NCBI GenBank assembly: GCA_037445735.1
Contig: JBBIJY010000030.1
Location: 1 to 28,692 of the forward strand
DNA length: 28,692 nucleotides
Reading direction: 5' to 3'
Source: Armatimonadota bacterium
Lineage (GTDB): Bacteria > Armatimonadota > Fimbriimonadia > Fimbriimonadales > GBS-DC
The notes beneath the pieces were generated by a model, which was given only the letters and a program-made list of their open reading frames with translations, was not told the DNA's origin and made no database searches. Shown here in pieces: positions 11,436-27,929 of the stretch (positions are counted from its first letter, which is position 1; every line of letters begins with the position of its first letter). The translations under genes and the position numbers were made by a program.

Positions 11436-12797
11436 CTATGCCAGCAGCTGGGCGAGCGGGCGATTGAGCGCGTCGAGGACGGCGGCGGCGGCGCTGCGCG
11501 GCACATCGTCGCGCACCAGCGTGCTGCCCACCAGCTCCTGGCGCGTCTCGTCCGACTCCCAGAGCAGCACCGCGTTAATGATGGTGCGCCCTTCGTCGAC
11601 GGTTGCCTGCGTGATAGAGAGCAGGGTGATCGAAACGGTGGCGGGCAGTCGGGTTCGCAGGGCGTTGAGGGTGGCTTCGGCGACGAGTCGGAGCGGGTTC
11701 GGCTCGCCTTCGGCGGAGCCGCTGAGCGGTGTGCCATCGATTTGCAGGTAGACCCGTGCCTGGGCGCGGCGCCCCTCGCGTTCGTAGCTGACGCTCTGGA
11801 TGCGCACGCGCCGTTCGGGTGGGCGCGTTTCCACCGCCGCCTGAATCGGCAGCGCGAGCTGAGCGCCCTGCGATGGCGCTTGCGACGCCTTCATCATCAG
11901 GCACTCCTGGCTGGCGAGATTGATGAGGTTGTCCACGGTGGCGGCGTAGTGGACCTGCTCGCGCTCGCGGGTGCGCTTGCCACCCTGATAGCCGTAGGAG
12001 GCGGTGATGGGCGTGTCCACATCGGGCAACTCGATGGCGGTGATCTGACGGCTGATATGGTGCGCCAGCAAGCCTGCTTCCTCGCGACGGCGCAGCGTGG
12101 CTATCGCGAACTCGTCGCCACCCCAGCGGCACACCACCTCCGTTTCAGGGTCGGTCTCCGCCTGCAGCACCTGCGCCACCCGACGCAACACCTCATCGCC
12201 TACCAGATGCCCGTACCGCTTGTTAAACATGCCGAAGTTATCCAGGTCAAAGAAGATAATGCTGATTTCGCGTCCGTGCGAGAGCTGTTCGATGCTCCAT
12301 TCGCGCAGGAAGTCGGACCATGGCAGCCCTGTCATGGGGTCGTGGCTGCGCCCGATTTCGGGCAGTAGATCGTACACGGTGAGCAGCCCTACCAATTGCC
12401 CTTCCTGGGCTACGGGCAGGGTGGTGTGGCGGTGCTGGCTGAACCAATCGGCGGCGGTTTTGAGGGGCGTTTCTGGTGAAAGTACGGGGATGTCGGTCTG
12501 CATGAGGGTCTTCACGGGCTGATCGGGCGGGGCGCCGAGCAGCTGCTGCAGTTCGAGCATGCCGCGGATTTCGCCGCTTTCAATCACTGGCAACCCGCTC
12601 AGTCCGTGTCCGCGCAGCAGGATCAGGGCGGTCTCCACCGTGTGATCGGGGTTGACCCAGACCCGTACTGGTTTGATGAGATGAGCGATTGTGCGCATAG
12701 GCAGCTCGCGCGTTGGGCGCGGCGTCGAACGGTGGTTCACTCCTTTGCCAGAGAAGGGCAACAACCCTTCCACCACCTTCAGTGCCCGCGAGTTCAC
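11436..12797 (-). CDS. Diguanylate cyclase: CBS pair + GGDEF + C-terminal alpha/beta domain
   Basis: CBS repeats (LSGLPVIE, TLPVAQEGQLVGLLT), DPMTGLP, DLDNF..FNKRYGHLVGDEVL, intact RWGGDEF. GGAGG RBS before GTG 12797, alternative ATG 12698. Confidence 0.9.
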   Translation of the reverse strand: MNSRALKVVEGLLPFSGKGVNHRSTPRPTRELPMRTIAHLIKPVRVWVNPDHTVETALILLRGHGLSGLPVIESGEIRGMLELQQLLGAPPDQPVKTLMQTDIPVLSPETPLKTAADWFSQHRHTTLPVAQEGQLVGLLTVYDLLPEIGRSHDPMTGLPWSDFLREWSIEQLSHGREISIIFFDLDNFGMFNKRYGHLVGDEVLRRVAQVLQAETDPETEVVCRWGGDEFAIATLRRREEAGLLAHHISRQITAIELPDVDTPITASYGYQGGKRTREREQVHYAATVDNLINLASQECLMMKASQAPSQGAQLALPIQAAVETRPPERRVRIQSVSYEREGRRAQARVYLQIDGTPLSGSAEGEPNPLRLVAEATLNALRTRLPATVSITLLSITQATVDEGRTIINAVLLWESDETRQELVGSTLVRDDVPRSAAAAVLDALNRPLAQLLA

Positions 12798-12946: not shown

Positions 12947-14236
12947 TTATGCGGCATGGGGTTGTTCGGCGCGGTTGACACTCAGGCGTTGCTCGGCGAG
13001 GGTCAGAATCGCCTCGCAATCGTTGCCCTCATCGGGGTAGTAAGCCCAGCCGTAGCGCACGGTGAACCGTGCCGCGAGGTTCGTGGCGAAGCTGGTCTGC
13101 AGCCACTCCTGCAGGGCTTCGTACACGCGCTCGGCGACGGCAGGGGTGTGTTCGCCGGCATAGGGCAACAGCACGCCCAGCATCGCCTGCCCGTAGCGCC
13201 CGATGATGTCCGCCTTGCGCACCACCTGCCGCACAATCGCCGACGCCTGCAGCAGCAGCTCGCCAATCGCCAGTTCGCCCAGCGTGTGGAGCAGCTGCCG
13301 ATCGCACACGAACTCGAAGATGGCGAACCCGACGGCGTTCTGATAGCGGGCGGAGCGCTGCAGCTCCTCACGCAGGCGCACCTGCAGATAGTCCGCAGAA
13401 TACATTCCCGTTTGCGGGTCCAGGATGCGCGCTTCGAACTCGCCGCGCGCCTCCGCCCGCGCCCGCATCCGCTGCTGGTCTATCCACTCCTCTTCGCTGA
13501 TGATACGGCGCAGCTTCTGCGTCGCGTTGCGCAGAATGTGCGACACATAGTTGCAGGAGATGCCCAGCCGATGGGCGATCTCGGTCTGATTGTAGCCCTC
13601 GTTGAAGAACAGGTGCAGAACCTGCTGTTCAATCTGCTTGAGGCGCTGCATCGCGCTCTCCACCACGAGGCGCTCCTCTATCGGCAGGTTGAACCCGTGA
13701 ATCGATTCGACGGGCAGCTTCTCCAGGTCATAGCCGTAGCCGTCCTCGTCTTCATCGTCTTCGATCGCATCGAGGGAGCTGACCTTGAATACCTCGCGGG
13801 TGAGCAGCACCTCCTCGACGGCTTTGGGCGTCATGCCCAGAAAGTCGGCAATCTGCTGGATGGTGGGCGGCTGACCCAGCTGAGCTGTGAGTTCATTAAT
13901 CACACGGTTGATTTTGGAGTTGAGTTCCTGCAGCCAGGCGGGTTCCTTGATGATTTTGCCCTTGTCGCGCAGGTAGTGCTTGATCTGTCCGATGATGAGG
14001 TGCGTCGCGTAGGTGGTGAACTTCACGCCCTTGCCCGGATCGTATAAATCCAGCGCGTTGAGCAAGCCGAGATAGCCCTCCTGGATCAGGTCTTCGATGG
14101 GTTCGCCAGAGCCGATAAATTTGCGGGCGACGCTTTCGACCAGACCCGACAGCTGGATGGTGATCATGTCGCGCACATTCAGGTCGCGCGTGCGACAATA
14201 TTCCTGCACCAGCTCTTCCGTGTCGTACTTCTTCAT
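12947..14236 (-). CDS. SigB/SigF/SigG-type sigma factor fused to a degenerate GGDEF domain
   Basis: Region 2 EDLIQEGYLGLLNALDLYDPGKGVKFTTYATHLIIGQIKHYLRD, region 3 PTIQQIA, region 4 NQTEIAHRLGISCNYVS, then DPQTG...RLREELQRSARY...RKADIIGRYGQAML. AGGAGG RBS. Confidence 0.92.
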   Translation of the reverse strand: MKKYDTEELVQEYCRTRDLNVRDMITIQLSGLVESVARKFIGSGEPIEDLIQEGYLGLLNALDLYDPGKGVKFTTYATHLIIGQIKHYLRDKGKIIKEPAWLQELNSKINRVINELTAQLGQPPTIQQIADFLGMTPKAVEEVLLTREVFKVSSLDAIEDDEDEDGYGYDLEKLPVESIHGFNLPIEERLVVESAMQRLKQIEQQVLHLFFNEGYNQTEIAHRLGISCNYVSHILRNATQKLRRIISEEEWIDQQRMRARAEARGEFEARILDPQTGMYSADYLQVRLREELQRSARYQNAVGFAIFEFVCDRQLLHTLGELAIGELLLQASAIVRQVVRKADIIGRYGQAMLGVLLPYAGEHTPAVAERVYEALQEWLQTSFATNLAARFTVRYGWAYYPDEGNDCEAILTLAEQRLSVNRAEQPHAA

Positions 14237-14284
14237 GTTCGCTCCTCCTGAGCCAACGAGCCTCCATGGTTTCGGATGAGGTTG

Positions 14285-14474
14285 CCCTCACCCCCGTGCC
14301 CCCTCTCCCACACTGTGGGAGAGGGGGTTCCAGCCACCCTCTCCCCGGAGGGGAAAGGGAGTGCCTTTGCCCTCGCCCCATGTGGGGGAGAGGGTCTGGG
14401 TGAGGGGGGTCGCTCACCGTGCGCCTGCGATATGCCCCTCACCCCAACCCCCTCTCCCCAGAGGGGAGAGGGGG
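14285..14474. repeat. Cluster of four REP-like palindromes
   Basis: Units of the CCCTCACCCC..CCCTCTCCC-N-GGGAGAGGG type in both orientations, e.g. CCCCCTCTCCCACACTGTGGGAGAGGGGG (14299-14327). Confidence 0.85.
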
Positions 14475-14479
14475 AGAGT

Positions 14480-15691
14480 TTATTGAATGGCGCTGACCAG
14501 TTTGAACATCGGCATCATGATGGAGATGGCGATGAAGCCGACGATGCCGCCCAGAAACACAATCAGCATCGGTTCGATCATCGAGGTCAGCCCCTTGATG
14601 GCGGCGTCCACCTCCTGCTCATAGAAGTCGGCGATGCGCACCATCATCTCGGAGAGTCGACCCGACTCCTCGCCGATGTCCATCATGTGGATGACCATCG
14701 GCGGGAACAGCCCGGTGGCGGCGAACGGCGTGCTGAGTGGCTGACCCTCGCGGATGCTGGAGCGCGTGCCCTCGATGGCGGCAGCCAGCACCGCGTTGCC
14801 GGAGGTCTCGCCGACAATCTCCAGCGTGCGCATCAGCGGCACCCCACTGGCGACCAGCGTGCCGAAGGTGCGGGCAAAACGCGCCACCGCCAGCTTCAGC
14901 ACCAGATCGCCCAAAATCGGCATCTTCAGCTTGAAGTAGTCATACTGATAGCGTCCCTTGGGCGTACGGATGTAGCGACGCAACACCAGCAGACCACCAA
15001 CGATGGCACCCGCCAGCGCCCACCAGTAGCTCACGAGGAAATCGCTCGCCGCAAACAGAAACTGCGTGGTGGCGGGCATCTCCACCTTCATGCTGTCGAA
15101 TATCTCCTTGAACTTCGGCAGCACGAACATAAAAATTGCAATCAGCACCAGAAAGGAGAAGATCAGCACCATCACGGGGTACATCATCGCCGATTTGACC
15201 TTCTGGCGCACCTCCAGGTCCTTCTCCAGAAAGGTCGCCAGTCGGTCGAGAATCTGATCCAGGATACCGGCGACCTCGGCGGCGCGCACCATGTTCACAT
15301 AGAGCGTGGAGAAGACGCCAGGGTGTTTTTCGAGTGCCTCGTTGAGCGCCATGCCCGCCTTGACATCTTTCCGCACGGTGTCGAGTGCGTGCTTGAGCGC
15401 GGCATCTCGGGTCTGGCTGTGCAGGATGTCGAGGCAGCGCAGGATGGGGATGCCCGCGTCGATCATGGTGGCGAACTGTCGGGAGAAGACGACCATCGCC
15501 TGCAGTTTGGGCTTTTTGGGCTTGCGAAGGGTGCTGAAGGTTGCCACCCGCGCTTTTTGCGGGGTGACGCGCACCACATGCAGCCCCTGCTCGTGCAGGC
15601 GACTGATCAGCAGCTGTTCGCTGTCGACCTCTAAAGTGCCGCGCAGGGTGCGCCCGCTGGAGTCGATGGCTTCGTACGAATAGAGTGGCAT
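14480..15691 (-). CDS. pilC: Type IV pilus / T2SS platform protein (PilC/GspF family)
   Basis: YSYEAID..G, FSRQFATMIDAG, KVKSAMMYP, GEESGRL, IEPMLIV and three TM segments. Confidence 0.95.
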   Translation of the reverse strand: MPLYSYEAIDSSGRTLRGTLEVDSEQLLISRLHEQGLHVVRVTPQKARVATFSTLRKPKKPKLQAMVVFSRQFATMIDAGIPILRCLDILHSQTRDAALKHALDTVRKDVKAGMALNEALEKHPGVFSTLYVNMVRAAEVAGILDQILDRLATFLEKDLEVRQKVKSAMMYPVMVLIFSFLVLIAIFMFVLPKFKEIFDSMKVEMPATTQFLFAASDFLVSYWWALAGAIVGGLLVLRRYIRTPKGRYQYDYFKLKMPILGDLVLKLAVARFARTFGTLVASGVPLMRTLEIVGETSGNAVLAAAIEGTRSSIREGQPLSTPFAATGLFPPMVIHMMDIGEESGRLSEMMVRIADFYEQEVDAAIKGLTSMIEPMLIVFLGGIVGFIAISIMMPMFKLVSAIQ

Positions 15692-15703: not shown

Positions 15704-16882
15704 TTAGCCTGCCATCTTCAGTAGATGGGTGAAGTTCTCTTTGTCCATCGCGCGGTTGATGGCTTCTTCGAAGCTGATGTAGCCGTTGCGGTGCAGGTCG
15801 GCAAGAGCGCGATCCATCGTGATCATGCCCTGGTTCGCGCTGGTCTCCATGATGGAGTAAATCTGGTGGGTTTTGCCCTCGCGAATGAGGTTGCGGATGG
15901 CGGCGTTGGCAATCATCACTTCAATAGCGGCGATGCGCCCACCACCCAGCATCGGGATCAGCTGTTGCGCGAAGACCGCCTCGATGGTGTTCGCCAGCAG
16001 CACGCGAATCTGCTCCTGCTGATGCGGTGGGAACACATCGATGATTCGGTCGATGGTCTGGGGCGCGTTTCGGGTGTGCAGGGTCGCGAACACGAGGTGC
16101 CCCGTCTCAGCCAGGGTGAGCGCCGCCTGAATGGTCTCCAGGTCACGCATCTCGCCGATCAGGATCACATCGGGGTCTTCGCGCAGCACTGCGCGTAGCG
16201 CGTTATGAAAGCTCTCGGTATCGCTGTGCACCTCGCGCTGATTGACCATCGCTCGCTTGTGCGTGTGCAGATATTCGATCGGGTCTTCGATGGTCATAAT
16301 GTGGCACGAGCGCGTCTGATTGATGAGGTCGATCATGCAGGCGAGCGTGGTCGACTTTCCAGAGCCGGTGGGTCCCGTTACCAGAATCAGCCCGCTGTGC
16401 TTTTTGACCAGTTCATAGATGACGGTCGGCAGGCGCAGCGATTCGATGGAGGGGATTCGGGATGGGATGACGCGCATGGCGGCGCCGACGCTACCCCGCT
16501 GCATATAGACATTAAAGCGGAATCGGGCGACGCCATGCACCGAGTAGGCGAAGTCGAGTTCGTGATGGCGTTCGAACTGCTCCAGTTGCTGGTCGTTCAG
16601 CACATCGTAGACCAGTCGGCGTGTGTCGCTGGGAGTCAGCGGTTTGTAGGGGAGCGGGGTCAGCTGCCCGTTCAGGCGGATGGTGGGCGGTAGTCCGACG
16701 GTGATGTGCAGGTCGGAGCCGCCGCGCTCCACGCACTCGCGCAGGAGATCGTCGAGAATCACATCGTCGACGGGTTTCTCTTCGCCTGCGACGCACAGTT
16801 CCACATCGGTGGCGCCTGCAGGCTGTTCGGTCGATTCGTCCGATTCGAGCCCTACCAGTTTTCTCCAGTCGAAGCCTTCCAT
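15704..16882 (-). CDS. pilT: Type IV pilus retraction ATPase
   Basis: GSDLH, Walker A GPTGSGKSTT, TIEDPIE, LREDPDVILIGEMRD, ETGHLVFATLH and the PilT-specific AIRNLIRE. Confidence 0.96.
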   Translation of the reverse strand: MEGFDWRKLVGLESDESTEQPAGATDVELCVAGEEKPVDDVILDDLLRECVERGGSDLHITVGLPPTIRLNGQLTPLPYKPLTPSDTRRLVYDVLNDQQLEQFERHHELDFAYSVHGVARFRFNVYMQRGSVGAAMRVIPSRIPSIESLRLPTVIYELVKKHSGLILVTGPTGSGKSTTLACMIDLINQTRSCHIMTIEDPIEYLHTHKRAMVNQREVHSDTESFHNALRAVLREDPDVILIGEMRDLETIQAALTLAETGHLVFATLHTRNAPQTIDRIIDVFPPHQQEQIRVLLANTIEAVFAQQLIPMLGGGRIAAIEVMIANAAIRNLIREGKTHQIYSIMETSANQGMITMDRALADLHRNGYISFEEAINRAMDKENFTHLLKMAG

Positions 16883-17020
16883 AGCGTGAACCCCCCTCAA
16901 CGGGGCGCGATGACCGCGCCCGTATCTGGCTGGCGAGCGTGGTGGTGTCCTGGCTTGCCCGCTGCCATAAGCCTATTTTGGCAGTGGGCGTCGGAAACTT
17001 TATGCCTTTCCCCCTCGGCG

Positions 17021-20577: not shown

Positions 20578-22421
20578 ATGTTCGGGAAAGGCAACACAGG
20601 GATTGCAGGAAACCACCCTCACCGCCGTAATTGTGCGGGGGGGGGAACTATAGTTCGAGCGACCGACTGACCGCGATTCGACGCCGATGCTGCCCGGCGC
20701 TGGCACGGGTTGTTCTGCTGTTTCTGGGCATTACGGCGGGATATGTATCGCTTCAAGCGCAGTCCAACAACAATTTGCAAGTCGCAATTGGACACAACCG
20801 GCTGGTGCTTTTAAATGCTGTTCCCAGTGGCTATGGCTACTTTGAAGTGCCGGACACGGTTTCCTCGCAGGAATTGGGTTTGGAGTATGAATGCCCATCA
20901 CCTCAGGAAGGTCAACCACCTTACTCTCCTGCCTGCGAATATTACCCGATACCGCTTTTCCCTTACCATCGCATCATTATGTGGGTAAATGACGATTCGG
21001 GCTGGCAGCCAGCTACTATAATAAGAGATGGAAACGTTATACGCGTCAACACATGGCAGCGCTTGCAACTACCAGGTAATCATGACACTGTAAGTTTTTC
21101 ACTTCCGGGTGAGACTGAAGAGCGTACCTATCGGGTCTATCTGGGAGACTGGATTCCGACACAGGAGCCGGGGCATCTTGTATTTGTGCCGTACCCGTAC
21201 CCATCCGACAACGCGCCTTCCGCATGGGAAGGGGATACAAAAACAGAAAGAGACTTGATAGTGATTGTGGATGCATACGGCTATTACTGGCAGTTGTGTT
21301 CTCGCAACTGGATTCCACCAGGCGAGACTGAGACTCCACCAGAAGGCGAAACTGCGTGGACGAATGAATATCTCTGCGATTATTCGTGGCAGTGCCCAAC
21401 CTGTTGTCCAGATAATCCGCCCTGCTGGACCAGGCGTGATGGCTGGACAGGTAAGCCCGATTTCAATGGCTCGTATGGTTTCCCGCATCTATGTGGCTGG
21501 TTCCAGTTGGTCTGTAAAAGGTGGGCAGGGGAATATTATTTTTGCCGTAGCAAATGGAAGTTTGTATGTGTTGGCGGGCGCGATCTTCGTCATCCAAGGG
21601 CGCATGTTCTTTTCAGAGGCAAAGTGACCTCGTTGCCCATCAGTGCAGGGATTCCCGAGTCGGCGGATGCGGCGGTGGATAGCCGTCCTGTGTGCCCTGA
21701 GCCGCAGGCGCCACCCACTTTTGCAAAGTTTGGGCGCTATGCCTATCTGGGCGGGCTGTTCGTGGGGCAGGTGCCATGGTTTTATGGCAACCGCTATGAT
21801 TGGCAAACCTCGCCCGATCTGTCGGGCACGGGACGTACCCTGCTGAAGTTTTACAATTACACTGTCTCTCCCGATAATTCCCGTAATTCCACCAACTTTC
21901 CCACCTCTGTATTTGCAGCTTGCCTTTCGCTGGCTTACACCGGCACGCCGCAGGGCGTTGCCGCCAGCAGCCCCTCTCCAAAACAGATTGGCGTGGTCGC
22001 TGTGCCCCGCAGCGACTGGGACGAAAACAGCGTCAGCTGGCAGTTTCTGCAAGAGAATAACCTTGCCGGAGCATTCACGAACACCCAGTGGGTGGGCTGG
22101 ATAGGCTGGACGGTGAACCTCAACGAGTTGCTCGCTCCTCTTCCTCCTGAAAATGCTCTGGACGATCAGGGTCAGATTGTCATCCGCTCGGAGCGCGACT
22201 GGGAGCGCAGCTGGCAGCAAATCAAGCGGGTGGTAATCCCTTTGAACAGGTGGCCAGTCCAGGACAACTCTCCATTCCTCTCGTTGCTGCTGGCGCTCTA
22301 TCCGGAAGTAGAGTTTGGTCGCGACCTCTCGTCGTATGTCTGGTACTACTTCTTCGGTAAAGATTATCCAGCGACTAATGGGCGCACCTGTCCGCGCCTG
22401 TGGTATGTCTGGCAACAATAA
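20578..22421 (+). CDS. Secreted Cys-rich protein with C-terminal DNRLRE-like domain, out of frame at a G9 tract
   Basis: GGAGG-N6-ATG 20578 stops at 20670 with G9 but would join the 596 aa ORF with G10 or G7. Signal-like RVVLLFLGITAGYVSLQA, and GRTLLKF...ACLSL...WDENSVSW resembles DNRLRE. Confidence 0.75.
20637..20645 (+). repeat. Poly-G (G9) simple sequence tract
   Basis: TGTGC-GGGGGGGGG-AACTAT. Confidence 0.9.
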
Positions 22422-22434
22422 CAGGAGGTGGGTC

Positions 22435-23472
22435 ATGAAGCGGCTTCTTTCGGGACGGCACAAGTTGGTCTGGTGGCTGGCGAGCTTCCTGACGGCTTGC
22501 CTGATGCTGGCAGGCGTCGCATGGTGGCTGCAGCGGGCGTCGCGCCCGCACACTCGCCCGACTCACATCGTGCGCCCTGCGCCTGCCCTGCCGCCCGCTC
22601 TGCAGGAGCCGCTGACCCGCGCTGCGACAGCGCCACCCCAGCAGGCAATCGAACTCTACCGCCAGATTGCTCGCCGTAAGCCTGCGAACGCCACTGAAAA
22701 ATATGCTGTCGGCTACGCCCACTACCAGATTGGTAAGCTCTACGCTCAGCAGAAAAAGTTTCGAGCTGCCCGGCAGGCGTTCCAGCAGCTGGCGGAACAG
22801 CGGATTGCTGTGCCCGCCCTGCCCCTGGACCCCAGCTTCGGCACCTGGAGCGAGCAGGGCGCGTATCAGGCAGCTATCTGTGCTTATCAGATTAACCGTG
22901 AAGAAGGCATCCGCCAGATGATTGCGTTTATTGAGCAGCACCCTGAAAGCCCGCTGGTGTATGGTGCCTATAAGCGCATTCTGCGCTGGACGAACGAGAA
23001 GCCACCCGCAGCCGCAGAGCGCGCGTGGCAAAAGGCGCAGGCAGCCCAGACAGAACGGCTCAAGCGCGCCGCCGCCTGCGGACCCAAAGCGCTCGCCTAT
23101 CTCCTGACCCACGAGTTTAGCCAGCCAACCGACTGGCAAACGCTGATGAAAGAGTGCGACACGGACATCGGCGGCACCTCCATGTGGGCACTGGCGCAGG
23201 CAGCCCGCAAGCGCGGACTGAGCGCCATAGGGCTGGAGGTCTCCCGCAAAGGGCTGCTGCAACAGGAGCCACCGTTTCTGGTGTGGAACCCCATCGGGCA
23301 CTACGTCGCGGTCATTGCCAGAGACGGCAACTGGCAGATGTATGATCCCGAAACGAATTCGCTCCAGCCGTGGCTGGAGGCGAGCCTCCCCGATGATTGG
23401 CGTGGAGCGATTTTACTGATACGCTCACGAGCAACACAGTACGCACAGCAGAACGGAGGTACAGAGCGATGA
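22435..23472 (+). CDS. Membrane-anchored TPR protein with C-terminal C39-family cysteine peptidase domain
   Basis: AGGAGGT RBS, N-terminal TM, TPR-like helices (AHYQIGKLY), CGPKAL...GTSMWALAQAARKRGL...HYVAV...YDP giving a Cys-His-Asp triad. Confidence 0.85.
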   Translation: MKRLLSGRHKLVWWLASFLTACLMLAGVAWWLQRASRPHTRPTHIVRPAPALPPALQEPLTRAATAPPQQAIELYRQIARRKPANATEKYAVGYAHYQIGKLYAQQKKFRAARQAFQQLAEQRIAVPALPLDPSFGTWSEQGAYQAAICAYQINREEGIRQMIAFIEQHPESPLVYGAYKRILRWTNEKPPAAAERAWQKAQAAQTERLKRAAACGPKALAYLLTHEFSQPTDWQTLMKECDTDIGGTSMWALAQAARKRGLSAIGLEVSRKGLLQQEPPFLVWNPIGHYVAVIARDGNWQMYDPETNSLQPWLEASLPDDWRGAILLIRSRATQYAQQNGGTER

Positions 23473-26400
23473 CACACAGGCAGCGTGAGATTCGGTATCG
23501 CTGGTTCCGACGCATCGGCTGGATGGGCATTCTGGCGCTGGGCATTCAGACCGCGGCGCCAGCGGCGGAAGCGGGCGTTCGCACCGTCGAACGCGCCTAT
23601 CGTCGCTATCAGGCACAGCGTGCGAACCGCCCGGAGGCGCCACCCGATGTGCGCGTGCTGCGCAAGAGCGAGATGCTCCACCTCAAAGGGCGCGGACGCA
23701 TCCCCAGCCTTGCAGGGCAAGCCAAGTGGGATATTATCGATAACGGCGTGAATCTGCGCACGCGCAACTACACCTACACCGCCACCGATCTCACCCTGCC
23801 AGGCGCGATTGGCATCCCCGTGAGCGTGGTGCGCACCTGGAACGCCAACGACGACCGTGAAGGACCCTTCGGCATCGGCTGGAGCTGGAGCCTCGATGTG
23901 CGTCAGGCAGCGGGCGGGCTGATCAAGCGCAAAGCCGCCCCCAGCCGCACCGTGCCCGCTCAGATCAACAACGGGCGGAACATGCCCGTGGCTAAGATAA
24001 CGGCTGGAAGTGGCGGTCCTTCTGTTCAGGTGTTTACCGTAGACGGCGCCCAGTGTCAGGACGCCAGCGGCGACCAGTGGATTGCCTGGCGCGACGCCGA
24101 CGGGCTGTACACACCACCCCCATGGGACCACAACGAATACGAAAGCACCTACCAGTCGGTTCGTATGGGCAGTGGAGAGAACCAGTACCTGCGGGAGTAC
24201 GCCGTAAGCACAAAAATCACCACACCTGACGGTACGGTCTACTTCTATGAAACAGTGCCACAACCAGACGGCTCACTTGTGGTGACAGACAGCAACGGCA
24301 ACGAGGTTTATGCCGAGCAGGTGCTGAAATGGGTGGAGGACCGGCACGGTAACCGCACGACCTACACATATCAACAGGCGGAGGTTCTACATACATACGA
24401 CACTTCCTCTGGCGAGCGTGCGAGCCGATGGGTCTGGAAACCCTTCGTCCAGCAGGTGACCAACGCCTGTAACTACAGCCTGGTTGTTCAGTGGAACTTT
24501 GCGCCTGGCGCTCGGCAGGTGTTCCATCCGCGTGTTCGGCAGGTCAGCAGTTATGCGCCAGACGGCGCACTGCTGGAAACGATTGAGTATGTTTACCCTG
24601 ATGAGTCCCGATCGGTGCGACAAGTATGGCGTCATCGCGAGGGTGCAAGTCGCCTGCTTGCGGCGTATGAATACACCAGCTGGCGCGTTCGCGATGAATA
24701 TTGTTCCTACCTGCCCCCAGGGTATAGCTGCATTGAAACTGATTTGCTCAGCGAAATTCGTGATGCTGATGGAGTAAAGACTCAAATTTTGTATAACTCT
24801 GAGATACCTGACAATCAGGATAGACACTGGTACCGTGTAGCGGTCTCTTCTCTTGCTTTGCCAAGTGGAGAAATTCGAAACTACCTAGACCTTCTGGCGA
24901 TTGAGCCTTTTACACCTGAAGAAATGCTTGGTTGTGTTGTTCAAGTTTACTACAATGCTGATGGTTCATGTATAGAGCGTAAGATATTATACGAACAGTA
25001 TGGAATGGATTTTGGGGATCCGATAGATGGTAGCTTTGCTATGCGTGTTCAGTTGGTCGGTTCTATTCTTCCTACCTTTGCCCCAGATTCTCCCTACCAA
25101 ATCACAGAAACTCGTATATATGGTGGTATCACACAAAACTTGAGAGTAAGCATCAAAGGAGATTTGTTTGCTTGGTTAATACGATCTTCCATAGCTTGTG
25201 GAATAGCAGAATTTGATCACTACTTCAGATTATTATCTCCAATTTTGGATAGATTCACTGACGAAGACCGTCGTTCAGCATATGTATTCGATCGCCTTTC
25301 TGCTCGTGTTCCTCTCGTCCAAAACACATACCTTGATTATAATTGTTTCGGTCAGCCACTTAGAGTGATACAAAGCCGTCAAGAATGGATTAATCGAGGC
25401 AATGGGTATTGGCAGCTGCTCACTGAGACACTCACCATCCAGCAAACCGAATATTATGGCAAGGAGTTCTACTATCAGAAAGCGTGGGAGAAGGACGCGA
25501 AGGGACGCACTATGCGCTATTTCTACCACAGCCGCAACGCCCCGCAAGGCTACAAGGGGCAGCTGCAAGCGGTCTATATGGACAGCATTTCAACTACCTA
25601 TCCTGTGTCTGAAGTGCTGGAATACAATCAGAACGGTCAGCCTGTGCTCTCTCGCTCCTTGCAACGGCTCAACCCGCTCCGTTATGTCTATACCAGAACC
25701 TTCTACACCGATAACGAGGGCGAAGGCGACGATGCAACGGGTCAGCCGCAAAAAGTGATTGAAGACTATCGCTATTCGGGCGACACCAGCGCTGCTGCTG
25801 GTATCAACCGTATCAGCACCACTCGCTACGATCAATATGGGCGCCCAATCTATCAGTCTGTCTACGCGCCTGACTCCAGCAGCAACGAGTACGCCAATCC
25901 CAGCCGACTTGTCCGTCGCCTGCACACTGTGTACGAAGAGGGCAGCGATCAGGTGGCGCTGGTAGAACGGGTCAACGCCAGCAACCAGCCCATCCAGCAA
26001 CTGGCTGCCTACACCTATACACCTGCTGGACGCCTGCTCAGCGCTACTGACTACCTTTCGCAAGTGTCTAATCATCTGACTTATGATTCTGCAGGACGCG
26101 TGCAAGCCAGCGAGGAATACTGGCAAAACCAGCTCCGCTACCGATGGGACTATGCTTACACAGGCGCCGACCTGACCAGTAAACAGCTCACAATTTACAC
26201 AGGCAATCAAAGTCAGGTCTGGCGCTGGCACTACAGGAACTATATCACAGGCTCATTTCACCCGTGGAGCCGCGTTTTTACACGCGTGATAATGGAACCG
26301 CCCGCCAACATCTCCGTCCCAGTACCCCTGGTGGTCGATTATGTGTACGATCCGACCGATAAGCTGCGGGGCGTACGCTTCAATGTGACGCCGAATCCTG

Positions 26401-27929
26401 CCCGCGGGGTTCAGGAGCTGCTGGATGAGCCGATGAGCGAGCAGGCTCCCCAGGCGTATGTGTTTGCCTGGTACGTTTATGATTCCCTCGGACGGCTCAA
26501 CGACCTGCGCTACTACAAAGCAGAATGCACTGCCTCCGACCCTAACAATTGCAACGAACAAACTAACTACACATACCAGCCCCTGATGCGCTTTGAGTAT
26601 TTCCAGCGTGATGCGAACTACACCCCTGCTTATGATGCCACGAACAACCGCTTGCTGATGCGCGCTTATGACTATCCCGATTTCAATACGCCGCAGCTGG
26701 TTCGCACCGAGCAGTATGAATATGACGCACTGGATCGGCTTGCTGGGGTCTCCTATAATGGAGGGGCATGGCAAAGGTGGACCTACGATGTAATGGGCAA
26801 CCGTTATGGTGCAGGCAACCCTGCCTATGACGGTTTGAACCGTCTTACACAGTTCGGCAACGCCCCTATCCAGCACGACCTGCTCGGCAACCGCTTGCAG
26901 GACGGCAGGTATCGCTATCAGTGGGACGCCCTGAACCGCCTGATAAGCATGCAAACCTACCAGCAGAGCGGACGCTTTGTGGTGATAGGCGACAGCTGGC
27001 GGTTTGCCTATCGCGCCGACGGCTTGCGGGTGGTCAAAGAGAAGGTGTCGCAGGCAGTGGGTCTGGAGGGTTCGGCAGGAGGTTCGTCGCGGGTGGAGTA
27101 TCTGTATGATGGGCAGATGCCCGTGTGTGAGCAGGAGTTTGTCGGCAGCACTTTGCGCACGAGTCGGGTAAACTTTCTGGGAGCGCGAGGGATAGAGGCA
27201 GTGCTGGCGATAGACCATACGCGGGGTAATCAGGCGCGTTTGAGCTGGTTGCTGTACGATGGGCACGGCAACCTGGTGCGCACGATGGCGTCAGATTACA
27301 CGCTGTCTGGGTTCCAGTGGCGTGGGGTATGGGGCGAGGTGCAGAGTTCGCTGGGTGCTGGCAGGGGCTATTGCGCCAATCTGGGTCATTTGGAGGATGA
27401 GACGGGGCTGGTCTATATGCGAGCGCGATATTATGAGCCTTTGACAGGTCGGTTCATCTCGGAAGACCCTGCGCGGGATGGTGTGAACTGGTATCTCTAT
27501 GCCGATGGGAATCCGGTCAATAGAATTGATTATGATGGAAAGGCTGCTTGGCTTGAGAGCTTTATCAACTGGCTCACTGGTATTTTAGAGAGAGCAGGTC
27601 AATATGCAGTTGCGCCACTCTTGGAAAAAGTTCTGAAGATTCCTAAAATACTCGCAGGTCCAGAAATTTTAGCTGATTTCGTTTTTGGGGTCGCTTGCAG
27701 TCTGGAGAAAATAGCGCGTTCGCTGATACGAGGAGGTCTAACGCATATTGCGGAAGCCTCTGTCTGGCTAAGGGCAGGGATGGCTGGTGGATCACTGGGG
27801 CAAATGGCTCTGGGGAGTTATATGGGGGCGCGTTCTCTTATAGGAGGTGCCCTAGAAGTGGCGGCAGGAATTGCGCTTCTGTCGCTTGCGTATTTCCTTG
27901 CAGGAACAGCTTATGGGCTGGCAGAGTAG
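23469..27929 (+). CDS. Rhs/YD-repeat polymorphic toxin with Sec signal peptide
   Basis: GGAGGT RBS and ATGA overlap with the upstream stop. Signal peptide ending AAEA, DUF6531-like GVNLRT..DL.LPG..RTWN..GPFGIGWS, YD repeats, core YMRARYYEP.TGRFISEDP...NPVNRIDYDG. Confidence 0.95.
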   Translation: MTHRQREIRYRWFRRIGWMGILALGIQTAAPAAEAGVRTVERAYRRYQAQRANRPEAPPDVRVLRKSEMLHLKGRGRIPSLAGQAKWDIIDNGVNLRTRNYTYTATDLTLPGAIGIPVSVVRTWNANDDREGPFGIGWSWSLDVRQAAGGLIKRKAAPSRTVPAQINNGRNMPVAKITAGSGGPSVQVFTVDGAQCQDASGDQWIAWRDADGLYTPPPWDHNEYESTYQSVRMGSGENQYLREYAVSTKITTPDGTVYFYETVPQPDGSLVVTDSNGNEVYAEQVLKWVEDRHGNRTTYTYQQAEVLHTYDTSSGERASRWVWKPFVQQVTNACNYSLVVQWNFAPGARQVFHPRVRQVSSYAPDGALLETIEYVYPDESRSVRQVWRHREGASRLLAAYEYTSWRVRDEYCSYLPPGYSCIETDLLSEIRDADGVKTQILYNSEIPDNQDRHWYRVAVSSLALPSGEIRNYLDLLAIEPFTPEEMLGCVVQVYYNADGSCIERKILYEQYGMDFGDPIDGSFAMRVQLVGSILPTFAPDSPYQITETRIYGGITQNLRVSIKGDLFAWLIRSSIACGIAEFDHYFRLLSPILDRFTDEDRRSAYVFDRLSARVPLVQNTYLDYNCFGQPLRVIQSRQEWINRGNGYWQLLTETLTIQQTEYYGKEFYYQKAWEKDAKGRTMRYFYHSRNAPQGYKGQLQAVYMDSISTTYPVSEVLEYNQNGQPVLSRSLQRLNPLRYVYTRTFYTDNEGEGDDATGQPQKVIEDYRYSGDTSAAAGINRISTTRYDQYGRPIYQSVYAPDSSSNEYANPSRLVRRLHTVYEEGSDQVALVERVNASNQPIQQLAAYTYTPAGRLLSATDYLSQVSNHLTYDSAGRVQASEEYWQNQLRYRWDYAYTGADLTSKQLTIYTGNQSQVWRWHYRNYITGSFHPWSRVFTRVIMEPPANISVPVPLVVDYVYDPTDKLRGVRFNVTPNPARGVQELLDEPMSEQAPQAYVFAWYVYDSLGRLNDLRYYKAECTASDPNNCNEQTNYTYQPLMRFEYFQRDANYTPAYDATNNRLLMRAYDYPDFNTPQLVRTEQYEYDALDRLAGVSYNGGAWQRWTYDVMGNRYGAGNPAYDGLNRLTQFGNAPIQHDLLGNRLQDGRYRYQWDALNRLISMQTYQQSGRFVVIGDSWRFAYRADGLRVVKEKVSQAVGLEGSAGGSSRVEYLYDGQMPVCEQEFVGSTLRTSRVNFLGARGIEAVLAIDHTRGNQARLSWLLYDGHGNLVRTMASDYTLSGFQWRGVWGEVQSSLGAGRGYCANLGHLEDETGLVYMRARYYEPLTGRFISEDPARDGVNWYLYADGNPVNRIDYDGKAAWLESFINWLTGILERAGQYAVAPLLEKVLKIPKILAGPEILADFVFGVACSLEKIARSLIRGGLTHIAEASVWLRAGMAGGSLGQMALGSYMGARSLIGGALEVAAGIALLSLAYFLAGTAYGLAE

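Follow-up and report, generated by a model that had tools for sequence, protein, structure and literature searches.

A sigma factor joined to a degenerate GGDEF domain in Armatimonadota: a candidate c-di-GMP receptor-sigma factor within a motility gene network

The question raised by the locus described here is whether the second messenger c-di-GMP can be coupled to promoter choice within one and the same polypeptide. The window, that is the whole analysed stretch of 28,692 nucleotides from an Armatimonadota bacterium, contains on its minus strand a gene of 429 aa (12947..14236), which begins with ATG directly downstream of an AGGAGG ribosome-binding site and which, according to its open reading frame and to Pfam, joins a sigma factor to a GGDEF domain. 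No description of a sigma-GGDEF fusion was found in the openly readable literature, in which an entry of a domain-architecture table could escape notice. Several components of such a system are known already, as far as the accessible portions of the cited reports go: degenerate GGDEF domains that serve as receptors (PMC2952852, PMC10118264), control exerted by RsiG on WhiG (PMC8325347), and contact between a separate GGDEF protein and a sigma factor (PMC13232838). In the literature surveyed, however, c-di-GMP control of sigma factors has hitherto been exerted only via separate proteins, RsiG and RmdB. With a slight leaning in its favor, we propose that the fusion is a one-component alternative sigma factor gated by c-di-GMP, which would bind the ligand and whose activity would be controlled by the resulting cross-linking, the 'off' direction being favored.

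With regard to the sigma part, all Pfam matches exceed their cut-offs: Sigma70_r2 spans residues 30-94 (13955..14149, with HYLRD in region 2.4), Sigma70_r3 residues 104-165 (13742..13927) and Sigma70_r4 residues 195-243 (13508..13654), the latter including a helix, SCNYVSH (13538-13558), that comparison with homologues marks as typical of the family; all lie on the minus strand. The three regions had been recognized as complete in a sequence-only reading of this DNA, and their presence, together with the absence of region 1.1 (just 29 residues precede region 2), is what characterizes group 3 sigma70 factors. The same reading had assigned the protein to the SigB/F/G type, which holds for the best-scoring family and fails for formal membership, as the sigma part scores best against the SigB/SigF/SigG model TIGR02980, with 172 bits, below the curated cut-off of 234. 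The score against the FliA/WhiG model TIGR02479 (107-108 bits) is likewise below its cut-off of 189.6. The SigB/F/G models, among which that of cyanobacterial SigF (NF005644) is also one of the best-scoring, match 59 of 59 members scanned, with a best E value of 2.7e-57. Judged by these profile scores, the sigma factor would work like SigB/F/G, yet its sub-cut-off score keeps it from being filed there.

The C-terminal part is a degenerate GGDEF domain (residues 272-422, Pfam E 4e-16; 12971..13423, minus strand), which lacks both hallmarks of an active diguanylate cyclase: GQAML (13178..13192, minus strand) replaces the catalytic GG[D/E]EF motif, and AIFEF (13310..13324, minus strand) stands where cyclases carry the metal-binding Asp. 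Both replacements, pointed out by the sequence-only reading, can be read directly in the sequence, and the GGDEF fold that it proposed is corroborated by the Pfam match and by structural comparison. In particular, the C-terminal domain of an AlphaFold monomer model (mean pLDDT 83.9, pTM 0.44) aligns with 6d9m over 156 residues (Z 19.3, rmsd 2.7) and with PleD 2wb4 over 157 (Z 18.7, rmsd 2.4). In this model the last helix of region 4 continues as a single helix (228-264) into the linker (residues 244-270; 13427..13507, minus strand), and the orientation of the sigma part relative to the GGDEF domain is not fixed, given the pTM value.

PelD is an example of a degenerate-GGDEF receptor with a dead active site and an intact RxxD motif. 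The fusion carries the same motif as RKAD (residues 340-343; 13208..13219, minus strand), precisely at the coordinates and at the distance, five residues before the signature position, given by the sequence-only reading, and this is the predicted primary c-di-GMP site. In PleD, according to the available part of the structural report (PMC7288161), the site is composed of R359, D362 and R390 of one domain and R313 of the other. Alignment with the PleD range, which is weak (E 0.7) and is supported by the fold match, places R340 and D343 on R359 and D362 and, with a one-residue gap, R370 (13127..13129) on R390 as the predicted third residue of the primary site, and R294 (13355..13357) on R313 as the predicted secondary-site arginine supplied by the partner domain, both on the minus strand; the four residues are spaced as in the PleD site. 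As far as the accessible texts describe PopA and the PleD I-site (PMC2952852, PMC7288161, PMC10118264), the fusion shares with them the RxxD motif and the fold, and with PopA also the dead active site. It differs from PopA and PelD in its partner domain, a sigma factor and hence an output domain, whereas the usual partners of degenerate GGDEF domains are PAS, GAF and REC sensors (PMC2952852, in the part accessible).

Since RxxD is common in GGDEF domains generally, a single occurrence is weak evidence: degenerate GGDEF-only proteins mostly retain it (PMC2952852, as far as accessible), and it is present in two of the four intact GGDEF proteins of this genome. The argument rests instead on conservation of the site against a decayed background. 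A first protein search yielded 1144 matches, the best 120 of which comprised 117 full-length fusions once P0032, P0034 and P0035, with aberrant tails, had been dropped; among these near homologues R340 and D343 are present in all 117, R294 in 116 and R370 in 113. A broader sample came from the 150 best cluster representatives listed (50% clustering), which include 69 fusions, 68 of them spanning the site. Among the latter, GG[D/E]EF is found in none, RxxD in 60, R294 in 61 and all four residues in 52, so that the conservation of RxxD in orthologues on which the sequence-only reading had made its proposal depend is observed. Mean identity in this set is 24% for the GGDEF domain and 42% for the sigma regions. 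When the 161 positions of the domain are ranked by conservation, with the other positions of the same domain, rather than a matched degenerate-GGDEF family, as the yardstick, D343, R370 and R294 occupy the first three ranks and R340 is tied for the fifth to seventh. Moreover, RxxD persists in proteins of family f7 whose domain scores just 15-38 bits against the family profile. The alignment from which the detection profile was built, A2, had omitted RxxD-lacking and f7 homologues; its invariant columns are therefore not used as evidence, and the count over 68 representatives includes both groups. On the strength of this pattern, c-di-GMP is very probably bound by the fusion at the retained four-residue site. 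Outside the ligand site, a family-specific face formed by R287, E290 and E291 is also conserved. As for the eight representatives without RxxD, one has a frameshifted-looking tail, one stands separate, and six form one subclade (support 93). The members of this subclade (P0168, P0173, P0176, P0177, P0180 and P0191) retain the fusion, with H in place of R in four; they represent a natural control and possibly have another ligand or none.

A profile search of 401 Armatimonadota genomes returned matches at E<=1e-60 in 291, mostly in one copy. Subtraction of 18 genomes of two families, whose checked matches were sigma-only, leaves about 273 carriers, counted by profile rather than verified singly, the GGDEF part being present in 28 of 30 sampled loci. 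Among the best 120 and the best 150 protein matches, named records belong to Armatimonadota, apart from one labelled Chloroherpetonaceae and several given just as 'bacterium'. In a FastTree phylogeny of the sigma domains (SH-like support, midpoint root), a branch with support 98 unites all 79 presumed fusion rows with 12 sigma-only rows, part of them fragments and part apparent losses of the GGDEF domain, while eight FliA rows form a branch of their own (support 100), apart from all fusions. A single origin of the fusion is thus suggested by the sequences. In family f34 (loci L109 and L110) the sigma factor is kept without the GGDEF domain, and since these members are nested among fusions a secondary loss is probable. 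A protein of 1274 aa, P0196, matches the family profile in seven stretches, best in the GGDEF part; its cluster is named diguanylate cyclase-like.

In lineages devoid of cyclases, degenerate GGDEF domains lose their site, according to the accessible part of PMC9239204, an observation that prompted a comparison of the fusion with the occurrence of other GGDEF proteins. The fusion is found in none of the 32 genomes out of 401 without a strong GGDEF match, versus 273 of the 369 with one; 12 of the 32 were deduced from gaps in the match list, and related genomes are not independent. In the genome under study, four GGDEF proteins besides the fusion have intact motifs; there are also three matches to the HD-GYP motif and four to MshEN, and no match to EAL was obtained. 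One GGDEF gene adjoins the fusion in the window itself (11436-12797, minus strand, start uncertain) and encodes a CBS-CBS-GGDEF protein with an intact GGDEF motif and no RxxD. As a conserved partner this downstream gene was rejected, being next to the fusion in 1 of 80 loci. By eye, a sigH-like site (GCAGGA, 16 nt, CGTAT) lies just past the fusion stop codon and may be the promoter of the CBS-CBS-GGDEF gene itself.

The position of the fusion gene connects it with pili. On the minus strand of the window it follows a pilT/pilU-family ATPase gene (15704..16882), the first of the unit in this lineage, and a pilC/gspF-type platform gene (14480..15691), its conserved upstream neighbor; the spacer between pilC and the sigma gene (14237..14479) measures 243 bp and contains hairpin-type dispersed repeats, as compared with 38 bp in the relatives L003, L004 and L021. 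pilC lies upstream of the fusion in 39 of 68 loci with room for it, or 40 of the whole set of 80; pilT does so in 36, and pilB, with an MshEN-like start by eye, is also present in about 16. In general, the fusion gene is either the last of a (pilB)-pilT-pilC unit or found by itself, as is mostly the case in Chthonomonadales. A link between pili and this type of sigma factor has a parallel in cyanobacteria, where SigF controls pilin expression.

In all three arrangements, a site consisting of a CTAAAG-like element, about 15 bases and G(G/C)C(A/G/C)A(T/A)AAT precedes the first gene. In the window, the candidate sigma28-type promoter of the pilT-pilC-sigma unit is located at 16975..17003 on the minus strand (TAAA, a 16-nt spacer and GCCAAAAT; 16.7 bits), with 3 mismatches to the strict flagellar consensus TAAA-N15/16-GCCGATAA; the consensus was taken from the accessible text of PMC8325347, and the site described by our matrix appears to be of that type. 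Sites of at least 12 bits are present in 64 of the 75 regions and, when the opposite strand is scored, in 2 of 75, a comparison that is partly circular. When trained on stand-alone loci, it recovers 14 of 19 pilT-led and 7 of 16 pilB-led loci (1 and 0, respectively, on the reversed strand); when trained on pilT-led loci, it recovers 14 of 40 stand-alone loci and 1 of 16 pilB-led ones. In 30 held-out distant loci no enrichment of the matrix was detected (3 versus 2 on the reverse strand); pilC lies upstream in 15 of these, whose promoter is therefore out of range.

Across the genome under study, the matrix marks 108 sites at 15 bits or more, against 31-39 in shuffled sequence, and at 14 bits it marks 42 of 2239 upstream windows, the corresponding figures being 26 for antisense and 6 of 1834 for mid-gene windows, with flagellin as the top-ranked match. 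A Pfam check of promoter targets, covering 33 proteins that do not all derive from the 42, confirmed among the 42 flagellin, FlgM, FliD, FlhA, FlhB, an FlhF-type GTPase, FliM, FlgF/G, FlgA and PilM, and further two MshEN ATPases, two HD-GYP-type and two HDOD proteins, in addition to the pilT of the window. In Rubrobacter, according to the part of PMC8325347 that is available, the predicted WhiG targets are type IV pilus and c-di-GMP enzyme genes. By eye, a sigma28-type site was also seen before a nucleotide-sugar dehydrogenase-like gene (G000:C13:53708-55036), as well as in the distant loci L166 and L167, suggesting that this gene is a conserved glycosylation target of FliA. A prepilin-type start motif occurs in 33 frames of this genome, which, with three PilM-type genes and the four MshEN matches already mentioned, points to several pilus or secretion systems, and its flhF gene heads a run with a pilM-to-secretin cluster (G000 C16:52566-62562).

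The question then arises of which sigma factor reads these promoters. FlgM, three flagellin-type matches and sigma28-type sites are found in this genome together with no FliA over the cut-off, which suggested that the fusion, its best FliA_WhiG match at 108 bits, might itself replace FliA, read the sigma28-type promoters and be held by FlgM. This idea was rejected and is highly improbable, as 310 of 401 genomes have a FliA/WhiG that scores over the cut-off, the five nearest relatives, one of them with a 97% identical fusion, being all among them, and the sigma part of the fusion groups apart from FliA in the tree. Moreover, the 3.7-kb fliA locus of the relative with the 97% identical fusion has no megablast match in the assembly studied here, which points to an assembly gap. 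The most economical interpretation is that the pil-sigma unit depends on FliA for its transcription; transcription of the fusion gene together with pilT and pilC by a canonical FliA/WhiG is considered likely. Within families the fusion follows motility, though not strictly (FliA lists compared by eye). In f24 one set of 18 among the 23 genomes carries fusion, FliA and flagellin alike; in f10 fusion and FliA occur in 26 of 33, with flagellin in 25 of those; in f7 all 23 genomes have the fusion and neither FliA nor flagellin; and in f26 all 15 have FliA and no fusion. Over the 401 genomes, fusion and flagellin are combined in 197, the fusion occurs alone in 76, flagellin alone in 55 and neither in 73. 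The fusion probably acts downstream of FliA and was lost along with flagella in several families. As observed by eye in the relatives' loci L124 and L125 (genomes G373 and G333), fliA is not located behind flhF; it is preceded there by a frame resembling glycogen synthase and by a gene for a small membrane protein.

The promoters served by the fusion itself were sought by word-pair enumeration over the upstream regions of this genome. The promoter classes that emerged are sigA-like, sigH-like, sigma28-like and two ECF-like ones; in these regions, SigB/F-type -10 words are not enriched and no class assignable to the fusion was found. Similarly, the variant GGCRATAAT gave 7 and 0 sites in two genomes of the Chthonomonadales group, with no coherent gene set. 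The sigH-like class (AGGA, 16 nt, CGAA) occurs before 59 of the 559 genes that lack sigA- and sigma28-like words, and two sigma factors labelled SigH-like by eye are encoded in the genome. Another element, TGTCCGCTTTT followed after about 11 nt by GAGTC, is present at G000:C16:24591-25134 and at 11 further sites (contigs C1, C2, C3, C5, C10, C12, C14, C17, C18 and C36), where it precedes the genes of 11 proteins that look secreted as well as a sigma gene of ECF type, split in two frames; these sites are a candidate autoregulated ECF regulon. Elsewhere in the window, a lower-GC stretch on the plus strand (22315-27929) encodes a protein with a C39 peptidase domain followed by a 1510-aa frame with DUF6531, a locus that resembles the RHS type.

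The mechanism that we propose starts from the architecture described above, in which an intact group 3 sigma factor on the SigB/F side is joined via a long helix to a GGDEF domain devoid of catalysis. c-di-GMP would bind at the retained R340/D343/R370/R294 site and, as a fairly probable further step, intercalated c-di-GMP dimers would bridge R340, D343 and R370 of one chain with R294 of another, as in PleD, leaving two sigma factors cross-linked through their GGDEF domains and the linker helix. In such cases, with a modest preference for this outcome, the cross-link would hold region 4 unable to work with the core polymerase, the sigma factor thus being off at high c-di-GMP. A dimer model bears on the cross-linking step: the segment 184-425, modelled as a pair together with four c-di-GMP, reaches 0.69, against 0.00 for the best control, the ligand being outside the score. 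The mark is attained by 20 of 30 solved pairs and by 1 of 23 single chains, and no fewer than 46% of contacts are shared between runs, at a pLDDT of 80 or more. In the model, helix 290-297 packs against the 340-344 loop of the partner, which is the PleD cross-linking geometry, and linker residues 244-263 share the interface. The pass may reflect memory of solved complexes of the same kind (PleD/WspR).

The gating by c-di-GMP would replace an RsbW-type anti-sigma factor, which is missing in many carriers. The earlier remark that no anti-sigma gene is adjacent holds for the window, where Pfam found no anti-sigma gene, RsbW/SpoIIAB included, among the 22 ORFs scanned; for the genome it has to be amended, as FlgM is encoded elsewhere. 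No anti-sigma or antagonist cluster was seen among the shared neighbors of 80 loci, compared without a Pfam scan, and of 17 carrier genomes 5 have an RsbW-type match (E<=1e-12) and 12 have none, four of the latter being listed as single-contig. Together with the score of 172 against 234 bits, the SCNYVSH helix of region 4 and the C-terminal GGDEF domain, this absence in 12 of 17 carriers distinguishes the fusion from SigB/F/G. In the hierarchy of flagellum and pilus genes, transcription by FliA/WhiG would make the fusion a lower tier.

By analogy with RsiG-WhiG, high c-di-GMP would more likely turn the sigma factor off than on. The converse, in which the empty GGDEF domain blocks the sigma factor, and ligand binding at the same site or dimerization frees it, as c-di-GMP rises, for surface-attachment or pilus genes, draws on the same conservation and co-occurrence data. 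It would also fit the MshEN-like N-termini of the neighboring pilB products (by eye) and the four MshEN matches of this genome, given that the Vibrio pilus ATPase MshE is activated by c-di-GMP (PMC8325347, as far as its accessible text goes), and the conservation of the R287/E290/E291 face beyond the ligand site. We nevertheless regard activation as unlikely, as the monomer model has no confident intramolecular packing of the sigma part against the GGDEF domain (pTM 0.44) and RsiG-WhiG, the one characterized c-di-GMP-sigma switch, is inhibitory. Furthermore, sigma factors on the core polymerase are monomers.

Two other readings do without direct control of polymerase binding by c-di-GMP. In one, the domain binds c-di-GMP or a partner, and its output is localization, proteolysis or docking to a cyclase, a phosphodiesterase or the pilus platform, in the manner of PopA or RmdB. 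PopA, whose localization is altered by c-di-GMP at the RxxD site (PMC2952852, in the part available), provides a precedent, and the location of the gene after pilC in 39 of 68 loci also speaks for this reading; the other 29 loci, however, have no pil linkage, the cross-linking R294 is kept in 61 of 68 representatives and the homodimer model passes, which makes this reading rather unlikely. In the other, the GGDEF domain works without ligand as a structural or dimerization module, and its conserved residues either serve folding or descend from an ancestral cyclase, as the frequency of RxxD in GGDEF domains and the six related homologues that retain the fusion without it would allow. This is quite improbable in view of surface arginines that outrank most core positions at 24% identity, of RxxD surviving in f7 domains of 15-38 bits, and of the fusion missing from every one of the 32 genomes that lack a strong GGDEF match. 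Returning to the c-di-GMP-gated sigma factor, c-di-GMP probably switches it directly within the motility gene network.

One-component control is also known from ECF sigma factors with regulatory C-terminal extensions, such as ECF41, in which a fused domain takes the place of an anti-sigma factor. Such factors belong to group 4 and are without region 3, and we know of no ECF regulatory extension with a cyclic-nucleotide receptor fold. Among c-di-GMP systems, RsiG-(c-di-GMP)2-WhiG of Streptomyces and Rubrobacter likewise acts on a group 3 sigma factor, with a separate coiled-coil anti-sigma factor as the sensor and a sigma factor of the FliA clade (PMC8325347, according to its accessible part). 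In contrast, the fusion has its GGDEF sensor in the same chain, its sigma factor is SigB/F-like, and a true FliA/WhiG coexists with it. A closer precedent than RsiG alone, judging from the part of the 2026 report that is available (PMC13232838), is RmdB-WhiG of Streptomyces venezuelae, in which contact with a GGDEF domain influences how available the sigma factor is. That domain belongs to RmdB, a GGDEF-EAL phosphodiesterase that is a protein of its own and works against RsiG. The GGDEF domain considered here, in contrast, is part of the sigma chain, is not accompanied by an EAL domain and retains the RxxD site.

At the level of the phylum, there is a slight inclination towards a sigma family in which each member's own receptor would cross-link two sigma factors by means of c-di-GMP, providing a gate free of anti-sigma factors and a third, FliA-driven tier of flagellum and pilus control. 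If true, a receptor and a sigma factor in a single chain would link the second messenger to promoter choice by the shortest possible route, and ligand-induced cross-linking would be a new mode of sigma factor regulation. It would also offer synthetic biology a compact c-di-GMP-responsive transcription part, a small soluble protein for which exact point mutants are possible. Finally, about two-thirds of the genomes sampled from this little-studied phylum conserve the fusion, so that c-di-GMP may act on transcription in these bacteria mainly through it.
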